NCBI GenBank assembly: GCA_947627675.1
Contig: CANQWY010000001.1
Location: 5,334 to 69,333, forward strand
Source: an uncultured Bacilli bacterium
GTDB lineage: Bacteria; Bacillota_I; Bacilli_A; RF39; UBA660
Length of the DNA stretch: 64,000 nt
Reading direction: 5' to 3'
In this document: piece by piece, positions 10,040 to 12,631 of the stretch
Position numbering within the stretch: the stretch's first letter is position 1
Layout of the letters: each line of letters begins with the position of its first letter
Position numbers and translations under genes: made by a program
Notes under the pieces: model-generated
Told to the model about the DNA's origin: nothing
The model's input: the letters and a program-made list of their open reading frames with translations, nothing else
Databases searched by the model: none

Positions 10040-12631
10040 TTAATTATGAGTGGATGGTAAAGAGTCTAGTAGACTATTTTTTATAGGTGTAAGCGGTTTA
10101 TTTTTATCTGAATTTTTCGGGAATATTATACTATCTATATTGGTTTTAGGTTTATTGTTATTAATATTTTTTGTTTTATTAATTGGTATTTGATTATTAT
10201 TTATCGTTATATTACTATTAGTTTTTGAATCAGAATTAGTTTTATTTCCTTCATTTTTATATTTTTCTATATTATTATCAGTGAGTGTTTTTAAAGGAGT
10301 TGTTCCTTTATTTTCAAAAATATTAGTTACTATATTTTCACTATTTATATTTTCTGAATTTAATTTTTTAGTATCAAAAATACTTTTTGGATTATTATTA
10401 TTATTATTATTATTATTATTATTATTATTATTATTATTTGTAAAATTAGTGCTTGGCATATTGAAAAAAGCATCAATAGTATTACTAATATTAGAATTTT
10501 TATTATTTTGTTTATTTATTTGATTTTTTATATTATCATTTATAGATGATAAAGAATTAGAAGAGTTAGATTTATTATCAGGTTTAGAAGTTTCTTCTTT
10601 AGCCGTTTTCTCATTATTATCAACTACTTTATCATTTGCAACATTTTTCTCACTATTAGATGTAGAAATATTTTTCAAAGAATTAATATCAGGGTTAGGG
10701 AAGAAAGAGTTAGAAGAGGCAGATTTATTATCAGGTTTAGAATCTTCTTCTTTAGCTGTTTTATCATTATTATCAACTACTTTATCATTTGCAACATTTT
10801 TTTCACTATTAGATGTAGAAACGTTTTTCAAAGAATTAATATCAGGGTTAGGGAAGAAAGAATTAGAAGAGGCAGACTTATTATCAAATTTAGAAGTTTC
10901 TTCTTTAGCTGTTTTATTATTATTATCAACTACTTTATTATTTGCAACATTTTTTTCACTATTAGATGTAGAAACGTTTTTTAAAGAATTAATATCAGGG
11001 TTAGGGAAGAAAGAGTTAGAAGAGGTAGACTTATTATCGGGTTTAGAAGTTTCTTCTTTAGGTGTTTTATTATTTATTGGCTTATCTTCGCTACCATTGT
11101 TTAAATTCTTTAATTTTGACTCTTCTTCTTTATCTTCAATTGTACTTTCAACTTTAGTATTAACTTTTTTAACCACTATATTTTTATCAGATTTATTATC
11201 TATGTTCTTATTATTAATTATAGAAGATATTTGAGATGAGGTAGTTATATTACTTATATTGTTTCGTATAGGAGTAGAATAGCTATCTACCTTTGAAACA
11301 GCCTCACTTATTACTTTAGCATTTGTTGAATTTTCTGTATTTTCTATATTTTTTTCCGTTTCTACATCTTTTTCTAGTAATTTTTTCTGTTCTTCTTTAG
11401 GTGTCTGACTATTTACCTCTATACAGCTATCTTCAATATCATTATCTATCTCAATAATTCTATATATCTCTTCAAATGTCGTAAATCCCCCCAAGATTTT
11501 TCTTAATCCATCTTGTAAAAGAGTAATAACATTGCCACTTCCATATACAAGAGTTCTAAGTTTTTCTTTGTTTGAATCTGAATTATTAATAGCATTTTTT
11601 ATATCTTCAGTAATTTCTAAAACTTCTTGAATCGCAATACGTCCCTTATAACCTTTGTGACAATAGCTACATCCTTCATGATTGGCATCATATATTTCAT
11701 TGATTTCTTTTCTCAAAGCTAAGTTAAATACTTTTTTTTCATACGGAGTTGTCTTTCTTTTTACTCTACATTTTGGGCATACCATTTTTGCAAGTCGTTG
11801 TGATATAATTCCTGTAATTGCGCTAGATAATAAATATTTTTCAACATCCATATCTAATAATCTTTCGATTGTAGATAAAGAATTATTTGTATGGATTGTT
11901 GATAATACTAAATGTCCGGTTATAGAGGCACGAACAGCAATTTGAGCCGTTTCACTATCACGAATTTCTCCAATTAGAATAACATTGGGATCTTGCCTTA
12001 AAATTGATCTTAAAACTGCTGCAAAATCAAGACCTATATCAGAATTTACTTGTACTTGATTCATTCCTTCTATGTTCATCTCTATAGGATCTTCAACTGT
12101 TATAATATTAGTTTGTTCCTTGTTTAAAGCTTGTAAAATAGAATAAACTGTCGTTGATTTACCACTTCCTGTTGCTCCGGTTATCAAGATAATACCGTTA
12201 GGGTTTCCAATCATTCTAAGTAACTTTTGATAGTTTTCTCTATTAAAACCGAGTTTATCAAGTCCTGCTAAACTTCTAGAATAATCTAATATACGAATTA
12301 CTATTTTTTCACCTTCATTAGTAGGTAAACAAGAAACACGCATATCTAATTCTTTATCTCCAAACTTACCTTTTATGGCACCATCTTGAGGAAGTCTACT
12401 TTCTGTTATATTCATATTAGACATTAATTTAATTCTAGTAGTTAAATTTCTTTCATACATTTTTGGGATATATGCATAATCTACTAGGTCACCATCAATA
12501 CGAATTCTAGTCATTATTCCATTTTCTCTTGGATCAAGGTGAATATCACTAGCACCTTTATTAGAGGCGTCAATAATTATAGAGTCGGCTATTTGCGTAA
12601 TTGGAGTTTTATTGAAATCAAATGTAACCAT
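10040..12631 (-). CDS. Type II/IV secretion system ATPase (GspE/PilB/ComGA family) with a ~470-aa C-terminal low-complexity repeat extension
   Basis: Walker A GATGSGKSTT, Asp/His boxes, and a tetracysteine motif (CPKC...CSYC). There is no N1 domain, which is ComGA-like. The C-terminal half has three-plus copies of a 51-aa repeat (SSNSFFPNPDINSLKN...) and an Asn17 run. Confidence 0.85.
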   Translation of the reverse strand: MVTFDFNKTPITQIADSIIIDASNKGASDIHLDPRENGIMTRIRIDGDLVDYAYIPKMYERNLTTRIKLMSNMNITESRLPQDGAIKGKFGDKELDMRVSCLPTNEGEKIVIRILDYSRSLAGLDKLGFNRENYQKLLRMIGNPNGIILITGATGSGKSTTVYSILQALNKEQTNIITVEDPIEMNIEGMNQVQVNSDIGLDFAAVLRSILRQDPNVILIGEIRDSETAQIAVRASITGHLVLSTIHTNNSLSTIERLLDMDVEKYLLSSAITGIISQRLAKMVCPKCRVKRKTTPYEKKVFNLALRKEINEIYDANHEGCSYCHKGYKGRIAIQEVLEITEDIKNAINNSDSNKEKLRTLVYGSGNVITLLQDGLRKILGGFTTFEEIYRIIEIDNDIEDSCIEVNSQTPKEEQKKLLEKDVETEKNIENTENSTNAKVISEAVSKVDSYSTPIRNNISNITTSSQISSIINNKNIDNKSDKNIVVKKVNTKVESTIEDKEEESKLKNLNNGSEDKPINNKTPKEETSKPDNKSTSSNSFFPNPDINSLKNVSTSNSEKNVANNKVVDNNNKTAKEETSKFDNKSASSNSFFPNPDINSLKNVSTSNSEKNVANDKVVDNNDKTAKEEDSKPDNKSASSNSFFPNPDINSLKNISTSNSEKNVANDKVVDNNEKTAKEETSKPDNKSNSSNSLSSINDNIKNQINKQNNKNSNISNTIDAFFNMPSTNFTNNNNNNNNNNNNNNNNPKSIFDTKKLNSENINSENIVTNIFENKGTTPLKTLTDNNIEKYKNEGNKTNSDSKTNSNITINNNQIPINKTKNINNNKPKTNIDSIIFPKNSDKNKPLTPIKNSLLDSLPSTHN
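10391..10438. repeat. (ATT)16 trinucleotide microsatellite inside the ATPase gene, encoding poly-Asn on the minus strand
   Basis: Perfect ATT x16 is directly visible. It corresponds to the N17 run in the ATPase C-terminal extension. Confidence 0.9.
10545..11095. repeat. 153-bp coding tandem repeat, about 3.6 copies, within the ATPase C-terminal extension
   Basis: AGGGTTAGGGAAGAAAGAGTTAGAAGAGG recurs at about 10691, 10844 and 10997 (period 153 nt = 51 aa). A fourth partial copy lies at about 10560. Confidence 0.8.

Follow-up and report, generated by a model that had tools for sequence, protein, structure and literature searches.

The motors of type IV filament systems are usually seen as positioned and regulated by folded N-terminal domains and dedicated adaptor proteins, and in characterised systems the N1 domain tethers or regulates the ATPases PilB and GspE. 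Disordered appendages have been described on motors of this kind. The PilU protein of Myxococcus xanthus (MXAN_1995) ends in a lineage-restricted, function-relevant disordered C-terminus of approx. 112 amino acids; a frameshift lengthening this C-terminus abolishes function and truncation restores it, indicating a regulatory role (bioRxiv 10.64898/2026.05.11.724270). In Caulobacter crescentus, truncation of the 79-amino-acid N-terminal disordered region of the Tad pilus motor CpaF cuts pilus dynamics but not ATPase activity (PMC12019362). In FtsZ, a disordered, poorly conserved and length-variable linker is followed by a short conserved peptide docking to membrane-associated partners (10.1101/171280; PMC9586301). 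Here, we analysed a 64,000-nucleotide stretch of DNA (the window) from an uncultured Bacilli bacterium (assembly GCA_947627675.1, contig CANQWY010000001.1, positions 5,334 to 69,333), which carries a PilB/GspE-type ATPase gene whose product begins without an N1-type domain and continues beyond the catalytic core into a long tail containing tandem repeats. We would give an even chance to the proposal, drawn from sequence comparison, that this tail serves the filament motor as a tether or regulatory arm that is both flexible and multivalent.

The gene occupies positions 10040..12631 on the minus strand (stop codon TAA at 10040..10042) and encodes a protein of 863 amino acids. It was recognised in the list of open reading frames (ORFs) and by its match to the Pfam family T2SSE (PF00437; E = 8.7e-118; 393.6 bits against a cut-off of 24.9), which covers residues 8-391 and positions 5-370 of the 370-position profile. 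The catalytic core, residues 1-394 (11450..12631, minus strand), consists of an N2 domain and an ATPase domain without the N1/GSPII-type N-terminal domain. All four signature elements of the ATPase, located on the minus strand, are invariant in an alignment of 68 sequences: the Walker A motif GATGSGKST (residues 152-160; 12152..12178), the Asp box IITVEDPIE (residues 176-184; 12080..12106), the Walker B motif VILIGEIRD (residues 217-225; 11957..11983) and the His box TGHLVLSTIHTN (residues 238-249; 11885..11920). The same is true for C285, C288, C321 and C324 of the tetracysteine motif, which is composed of CPKC (residues 285-288) and CSYC (residues 321-324; together 11660..11779, minus strand) and predicted to bind zinc. 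Comparison with solved homologues by phmmer gave E-values of 1e-91 to 2e-97 over residues 8-396. The best matches among the NCBIfam models are GspE (TIGR02533; 461.9), PilB (TIGR02538; 448.7) and TfpB (NF053534; 381.7), all of them below the respective equivalog cut-offs of 630.25, 675.65 and 850. The ComGA model (NF041000) matches residues 17-282 with 264.6 bits and is also below its cut-off of 300.

Each of the three best NCBIfam matches starts only at profile position 106-195; the GspE profile is matched from position 106 and the PilB profile from position 177 onward only. Correspondingly, residue 8 of the window protein aligns with residue 176-201 of solved PilB chains and with residue 117 of GspE. 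The N1/GSPII/MshEN-type domain is thus missing, and the protein begins seven residues before the region aligned with PilB and GspE. The start codon is not in doubt because the N-terminus MVTFDF is kept in all orthologues and is preceded in the window by a sequence resembling a ribosome-binding site, AAAAGGGTGA.

Solved PilB/GspE-type ATPases share with the window protein the N2 and ATPase core including Walker A, Asp box, Walker B, His box and tetracysteine motif. In contrast, they possess the N1/GSPII/MshEN-type domain and no tail, whereas the window protein shows the reverse arrangement and has no platform gene next to it. The solved PilB, GspE and PilF chains all end within about 10 residues of the position aligned to residues 390-396. 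The next cultured relative, PilB of Clostridium bowmanii (43% identity), has an N-terminal domain of approx. 195 amino acids, no tail and PilC encoded immediately downstream. ComGA, the ATPase of the competence pilus of monoderm bacteria, is similar in being a Firmicute motor with a short N-terminus and pilin-like genes nearby. However, its model ends before the tetracysteine region, which is present in the window protein, and neither ComGB nor ComGC is encoded adjacent to the gene described here. ComGA is not known to carry such a tail. Judged by these alignments, the protein is a PilB/GspE-type extension motor without the N1-type domain, bearing an appendage where its characterised relatives stop.

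The tail comprises residues 395-863 (10043..11449, minus strand) and is rich in Asn, Ser and Lys (N 23%, S 13.6%, K 13.2%, I 8%, T 7.7%, E 7%, D 6.6%). At 25% GC, the chance of an open frame of 469 codons is approx. 2e-19, and the two remaining frames of the tail DNA contain 38 and 145 stops. No transmembrane segment is predicted, the maximum Kyte-Doolittle value over 19 residues being 0.08 and the grand average of hydropathy -1.3. AlphaFold2, run with the 68-sequence alignment, assigned a predicted local distance difference test score (pLDDT) below 50 to residues 396-863, except for a weak helix and a small rise at residues 842-849, the only multi-residue stretch beyond this helix with a pLDDT of at least 50. 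The proximal charged helix, residues 416-428 (KKLLEKDVETEKN; 11348..11386, minus strand), is the only secondary structure predicted in the tail; AlphaFold2 places it at residues 415-427 with a pLDDT of about 55. The orthologue with the shortest tail, P0032, was modelled with a confident core, a charged helix of 30 residues (413-442; pLDDT 63-73) and 67 disordered residues at the end. A conserved acidic segment and the charged helix come directly after the core.

Pfam searches of nine tails, that of the window protein and those of eight long-tailed orthologues, revealed no domain, and the full-length protein has no Pfam match beyond residue 391; a PF27564 flag on P0048 was not reproduced in the Pfam search. 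When the tail alone was compared with 5.8 billion proteins, only its own cluster was recovered, so the tail is not a shared module. Based on these predictions, the tail is real, cytoplasmic and disordered. These results agree well with a first-pass annotation of the window made from the letters alone, which had described a GspE/ComGA-like core with a Walker A and a tetracysteine motif in the first ~390 residues, followed by a Ser/Asn/Lys/Asp-rich extension of ~470 residues that was predicted to be disordered and considered foreign to characterised PilB, GspE and ComGA proteins. Its right-hand coordinate of 11200 needs correction, as the tail begins approx. 250 nt upstream of it.

The tail is not a peculiarity of this gene but, as far as sequence comparison tells, a trait of its clade. 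In each of the 120 best homologues the usual N-terminal domain is absent, the protein begins with MVTFDF, the core ends at residue 393-395 and a tail of 112-540 amino acids follows (median approx. 200 in the 68 aligned sequences). Homologues with a named organism derive from uncultured 'Bacilli bacterium' entries of gut metagenomes. While the cores are 76-91% identical to that of the window protein, the tails are only 22-37% identical and nearly unalignable between species. An exact look-up of the window protein returned no record, the nearest entry being the same gene with a shorter Asn run. One homologue, P0012 (954 amino acids), contains two T2SSE-matching stretches and an extremely acidic end rich in Asp, Glu and Tyr; it is explained by a motor that was partly duplicated or fused, or else by a chimeric assembly.

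The most conspicuous part of the window's tail is a 153-bp tandem repeat encoding 51 amino acids (10551..11074, minus strand; Tandem Repeats Finder score 894, 93% matches, no indels). The array amounts to 3.4 copies, namely three full units (10871..11023, 10718..10870 and 10565..10717, minus strand), a partial unit of 15 amino acids upstream and four amino acids downstream. Pairwise, the units differ at 9-13 of 153 nucleotides (92-94% identity). Further towards the C-terminus lies a perfect (ATT)16 microsatellite (10391..10438, minus strand; also found by Tandem Repeats Finder), which reads (AAT)16 on the coding strand and encodes Asn16 at residues 732-747. No other tandem repeat in the window scores above 70, and the expected frequency of an (ATT)6 seed was 0.00 in 100 shuffles preserving dinucleotide composition. 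The first-pass annotation had recognised both repeats. Its count of about 3.6 perfect-to-near-perfect 153-nt copies has to be lowered slightly, none of the copies is perfect, and the 16-unit ATT run encodes 16 rather than 17 Asn residues. It had also named mis-assembly of the repeats as the case that would overturn its description. Three other assemblies of the locus contain the 153-bp array without any difference, and it is therefore not an assembly artefact of the window.

Each 153-bp unit of the window opens with the motif SSNSFFPNPDINSLK, present at residues 537-551 (10979..11023), 588-602 (10826..10870) and 639-653 (10673..10717), all on the minus strand. In the sub-clade of the window protein, this aromatic-proline motif follows the consensus K-[YH]-S-[KNS]-[SDN]-[FY]-[FY]-P-x-[PK]-[DN]-[ILV]-x-x-[LI]-K, with 46 unique instances in 14 proteins and one to seven copies per tail. 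Among the three copies in the window, the 15 motif codons and the following Asn codon vary synonymously only, and all amino acid changes are located elsewhere in the unit. Repeat units of 51, 47, 33 and 32 amino acids in different species carry the same motif, suggesting that the motif and not the repeat unit is what is kept. The pattern [FYW][FYW]P was counted 46 times in the tails, while shuffling gave an expectation of 0.9, and two hydrophobic residues followed by Pro are enriched about three-fold (163 against 52 +/- 6.6), both counts being drawn from related sequences, so that the shuffles overstate independence. A profile of 28 motif units, compared with 1.84 billion representative proteins, found only its own cluster and P0226, although such a search has low power with 30 positions of biased composition. 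P0226 (143 amino acids) was rejected as a motif carrier. It looks like a spurious ORF that spans an array of DNA repeats and has no relation to the tail of the ATPase; SRDFFPAKELKL occurs in it four times at irregular spacing and VSRLFSCEGIETP twice. Within the limits of this search, the motif is thus not evidenced in other protein families.

Alignment of the C-terminal regions uncovered further conserved islands on the minus strand. TIDAFFNMP (residues 718-726; 10454..10480), just upstream of the poly-Asn run, corresponds to NIDKINNFFNN in P0004, P0005 and P0007. ITINNNQIP (residues 808-816) and NIDSIIFP (residues 831-838; together 10118..10210) are kept as ITINNNQ..IP and N-I-[DN]-x-[LI]-I-F-P in P0002-P0007, P0048 and P0070. 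N-I-D-x-I-I-F-P may mimic the PilM-binding N-terminal peptide I-N-L-L-P of PilN, but we make no use of this likeness, and the window contains no PilM-like gene. The C-proximal peptide KPLTPI (residues 845-850; 10082..10099, minus strand) belongs to KPLTPIKNS, the window's instance of a clade-wide motif P-[LI]-x-P-x-[ILN]-x-N; the full instance PLTPIKNS reaches residue 853 (window position 10073).

Selection on the tail was estimated by the method of Nei and Gojobori for P0002 and P0003, a single species pair whose tails align well. The ratio of nonsynonymous to synonymous substitution rates (dN/dS) was 0.021 in the core and 0.29 in the whole tail. Within the tail, it was 0.17 in windows covering the aromatic motif and 0.35 elsewhere. 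All 26 gap columns of this alignment fall into the tail, and all seven motifs are positionally conserved. Judging from these substitution patterns, the tail is under purifying selection, much less constrained than the core yet not neutral.

Tail length differs between closely related strains, most clearly in relatives of the window organism. Two strains of a sister species, distinguished by 21 single-nucleotide polymorphisms over 8 kb, differ by one 141-bp unit and thus carry five and three motifs, respectively. The deletion junction is as expected from unequal crossover between near-identical half-units, and the short allele is represented by three different sequence variants, on contigs of more than 100 kb. 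On this sequence evidence, gain or loss of an in-frame unit at the strain level is shown for the sister species. In a common human-gut species, an 81-bp unit (27 amino acids) is present once or twice, each allele being represented on tens to hundreds of contigs. One strain pair has four and seven motif units and differs by 107 amino acids. More than one protein length was found in 11 of the 17 groups with cores at least 98% identical, and every indel examined falls in the tail. One of these lineages, the P0074 group (with P0081, P0077, P0082, P0085 and P0106), combines cores at least 98% identical with total lengths of 610-765 amino acids and zero to four copies of a unit of approx. 40 amino acids. 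This unit, EPNSDSTISYGTNDIEVPSVPESNSTDEN..., belongs to a different repeat family, and the flanks IIITPPMIPAY and EPTLSLLTELPQNY...PTLIENN stay conserved. The alignments of this group are independent evidence for a variable middle with conserved islands. The 529-amino-acid members of cluster 6, the 90%-identity cluster of P0023, were excluded. P0163, the one that was aligned, is oxidoreductase-like and unrelated to the 575-amino-acid ATPase, and another is named FAD-dependent oxidoreductase by its source. Their presence points to faulty clustering in the protein collection, by which comparisons of length could be distorted.

At the window's own locus, variation is confined to the microsatellite. 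The (AAT)n run measures 48 nt in the window but 24, 23 and 21 nt in the loci L008, L006 and L007, the rest being identical over 8.5-12 kb, and the 153-bp copy number is equal in all four versions, which represent one strain of this species. Since the assemblies of L006-L008 have a near-identical contig number, length and approx. 7x coverage, they are probably not independent, and for (AAT)n real heterogeneity and assembly noise are therefore inseparable. The 23-nt run of L006 (ENA ERZ27249483 NODE_1290, locus position ~5900) shifts the frame and removes the last 116 residues; with coverage of only 7x, this 25-nt gap may have arisen during assembly. The product of the frameshifted version, P0001 (748 amino acids), is the representative of its database protein cluster. 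Thus, the expectation of the first-pass annotation that strains differ in extension length is borne out by the 141-bp, 81-bp and 107-residue differences in relatives, whereas in the window's own species only (AAT)n differs. Likewise, its statement that all length changes stay in frame holds for the units of 153 and 3 nt and for those of 141 and 81 nt in relatives, with the possibly erroneous L006 version as the exception. On/off phase variation through the microsatellite was considered as its normal mode and rejected, as 3-nt slippage keeps the frame.

Taking these observations together, we propose that the protein is the cytoplasmic motor that assembles type IV filaments in an uncultured gut Bacilli lineage of about 25% GC, and that this motor lineage lost the N1 domain and carries a C-terminal tail in its place. 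The tail would be built from the acidic segment and charged helix, a disordered linker, embedded short motifs and a C-proximal P-L-x-P peptide, with lineage-specific tandem repeats setting the length of the linker. Putative functional units in the window protein are the three copies of K-Y-S-x-x-[FY][FY]-P-x-[PK]-[DN]-[ILV]-x-x-L-K, N-I-D-x-I-I-F-P and P-L-T-P-I-x-N. They might dock the hexamer to a membrane partner, the platform protein or another component, or they might recruit a regulator, and the repeats would then determine how many docking sites there are and how far the tail reaches. Slippage of (AAT)n and unequal recombination between units would alter the length of the tail in frame, so that strains would differ in motif valency and linker length. 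The core-and-tail architecture, the predicted disorder, the occurrence of the tail throughout the clade, the conservation of motifs, the purifying selection and the repeat indels between strains of sister species are shown, whereas partner binding by the motifs and compensation for the absent N1 domain are inferred. Going further, the pilus or competence motor may have exchanged a folded N-terminal docking domain for a repeat-motif tail that serves as a cytoplasmic contingency locus, in which the number of docking sites is heritable and rapidly mutable by unequal recombination and slippage. In this way the locus might adjust the strength or the place of the motor's engagement with its machine, perhaps driven by phage-encoded inhibitors of the motor or by shifting demands of DNA uptake or adhesion. 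We consider this extended version unlikely.

Comparable arrangements exist elsewhere. By analogy, FtsZ with its C-terminal linker and conserved terminal peptide comes closest in mechanism, the likeness being limited to the order of an NTPase core, a variable disordered linker and a short conserved peptide; FtsZ belongs to an unrelated family, and the tail described here adds several internal repeated motifs. PilU, a motor of the same superfamily that forms hexamers, likewise ends in a disordered C-terminus restricted to its lineage. Unlike the window protein, however, it is a retraction motor of the PilT type with a tail about four times shorter, for which neither tandem repeats, repeated motifs nor length variation between strains have been reported. 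CpaF, which drives a type IV filament too, also has a disordered region at one terminus, but this is N-terminal, short, non-repetitive and missing from most CpaF orthologues, whereas the tail is universal in the clade of the window protein. What is new relative to PilU and CpaF is the extension-type motor, the tail of up to 540 amino acids, the motif-bearing tandem repeats, the universal occurrence in the clade and the strain-polymorphic length. The novelty is somewhat lower because disordered tails were recently described on these two motors. In-frame repeat loci of bacteria are typically found in proteins that are exposed at the surface or secreted and face pressure from host or phage. The window locus resembles genes with variable number tandem repeats or microsatellites in that each unit length, 153 and 3 nt in the window as well as 141 and 81 nt in relatives, is divisible by three, so that copy changes keep the frame. 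It differs in residing in a cytoplasmic motor and in operating without on/off switching, because slippage preserves the frame.

Several findings weigh against a tether or regulatory arm. Tail composition tracks genome composition, as under weak constraint, being Asn/Lys-rich here and Pro/Ala/Gln-rich in other lineages. The aromatic motif is present in only about 14 of 120 tails, a sub-clade, and therefore cannot account for what the tail does throughout the clade. The C-proximal motif is weak, scoring 10.8 bits against 8.1-8.9 in shuffled controls when a Gibbs search was applied to the last 45 amino acids of one representative per lineage. The tail dN/dS stems from one species pair with a dS of 0.6-1.1 and from a low-complexity alignment. 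The frameshift-truncated versions P0001 and P0230 indicate that loss of the distal tail could be tolerated. In the AlphaFold2 monomer models of the full protein and of P0032, no tail motif was docked onto the core; binding to the protein's own core thus has no computational support. Finally, among the ORFs of at least 100 amino acids scanned in the 64-kb window, there is no platform protein (T2SSF/PilC/ComGB), no PilM and no prepilin peptidase.

The main rival explanation holds that the tail is low-complexity junk tolerated in an AT-rich reduced genome, a floppy appendage harmless to the hexamer, with the motifs as leftovers of recent amplification. The low identity of the tails (22-37%, against 76-91% in the cores), their lengths of 112-540 amino acids, their orphan status among 5.8 billion proteins, the genome-like composition, the existence of frameshift-truncated variants and the lack of any detected structure or domain would all fit. 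We nevertheless regard it as unlikely, since not one of 120 orthologues has lost the tail, the dN/dS of 0.29 falls to 0.17 at motif positions and motif changes within the window gene are synonymous only. Moreover, independent repeat units in many species share the 15-residue motif, which keeps its position where the flanks have diverged. A regulatory function could also be exerted on the motor itself if the tail folded back on or between the subunits of its own hexamer and tuned oligomerisation or ATPase cycling, as proposed for PilU. The conserved acidic segment and charged helix directly after the core are in line with such a role, as are the loss of function upon lengthening of the PilU C-terminus and its restoration by truncation (bioRxiv 10.64898/2026.05.11.724270). 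However, PilU is a PilT-type retraction motor and not a PilB-type extension motor, AlphaFold2 placed no tail segment on the core in either model, and 112-540 amino acids with up to seven motifs exceed what a regulatory plug needs. Self-regulation of this kind therefore appears distinctly unlikely.

Aromatic motifs spaced by polar disordered linkers, six tails per hexamer and a motif valency that differs between strains would also be compatible with a scaffold, in which multivalent weak aromatic and charged contacts cluster the motors or form a condensate-like assembly concentrating the machinery at one site. As most tails of the clade are almost devoid of aromatic residues (F and Y 1.2% each) and their net charge ranges from -50 to +31, we hold this to be very improbable. 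There is hardly any probability left for the extension being an artefact, be it of repeat mis-assembly or of a lost stop codon fusing the ATPase to non-coding or neighbouring sequence. It is true that the microsatellite length varies among probably related read sets of approx. 7x coverage and that one of them is frameshifted by a 25-nt gap. But apart from the microsatellite, four assemblies agree in everything, the 153-bp array included, the repeat copies differ at 6-8% of positions and are hence resolvable, and a single open frame is kept in 120 orthologues from many studies and assemblers.

The surroundings of the gene are consistent with a filament motor. Its neighbours are two pilin-like genes on the opposite strand as well as YibE/F, YlbJ-like and YlbL/SepM-like genes. 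The two divergent prepilin-like genes (222 and 237 amino acids; 12732..14113, plus strand), found by a regular-expression scan and Pfam N_methyl, carry the signals G|FAMVE and G|MTLIE; the first of them, with the atypical G|FAMVE signal, has neither a Pfam nor an NCBIfam match. A third gene (16240..19158, plus strand) encodes a prepilin-like protein of 972 amino acids, a large modular pilin (Pfam N_methyl, E = 3e-7; a weak PKD match; TIGR02532). Altogether, the region up to 3.6 kb from the motor gene contains three ORFs with G|F/M-x-x-x-E prepilin signals. The 972-residue pilin, located 3.6 kb away, has the canonical signal KGFTLIE and is unusually large; it may be an adhesive or functional subunit of the filament. 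The order of the ATPase, the two divergent prepilin-like genes, the YlbJ-like and the YlbL/SepM-like gene is kept in every related locus examined (L001, L002, L006, L009 and L011). A scan of a genome collection with the whole protein, which yielded two close relatives among the matches listed (at least five loci), was used for this synteny and not for strain comparison. An adjacent membrane protein of 307 amino acids was considered as a divergent platform protein and rejected, as it matches the sporulation protein YlbJ and its neighbour matches a YlbL/SepM-type protease. The ORFs scanned include neither T2SSF/ComGB nor a short ComGC-like pilin, and there is no comG-type operon. Unlike in locus L003 with its clostridial pilB-pilC arrangement, the genes of the filament system seem to lie scattered over the genome.

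The remainder of the window fits a reduced-genome Firmicute by its sporulation-related and cell-wall genes. A SpoIVB peptidase (25096..26088), SpoIIM (27949..28584), a YlbD coat protein (51729..52115) and the YlbJ-like protein (14087..15010) are sporulation genes or remnants retained in the approx. 25% GC, apparently reduced genome of an uncultured gut lineage. A WXG100-family protein (291..632) and a DUF4176 protein (3396..3785), both on the plus strand, flank an ORF of 609 amino acids without a Pfam match; together they resemble a type VII (ESX-like) cluster for secretion or effectors, located where the window begins. Two tyrosine recombinases (32977..33876 and 56945..57838, minus strand) each show the XerC/XerD-type combination of a Phage_integrase and a SAM-like N-terminal domain. 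Scans of the window with Rfam models and for tRNAs returned nothing.

In practical terms, the microsatellite and the repeats are spots where metagenome assemblies disagree and yield false frameshifts. At the same time, the natural alleles constitute a ready series for linker length and motif number, with three versus five motifs, four versus seven motifs and zero to four units. A whole clade of abundant uncultured gut bacteria without the N-terminal domain keeps a long motif-bearing tail on its motor, with a valency that varies between strains. If this tail does act as a tether or regulator, it would extend the single-species reports on CpaF and PilU to extension ATPases, adding natural length variation, and it would represent a second way, based on short linear motifs, to couple a type IV filament motor to its machine.

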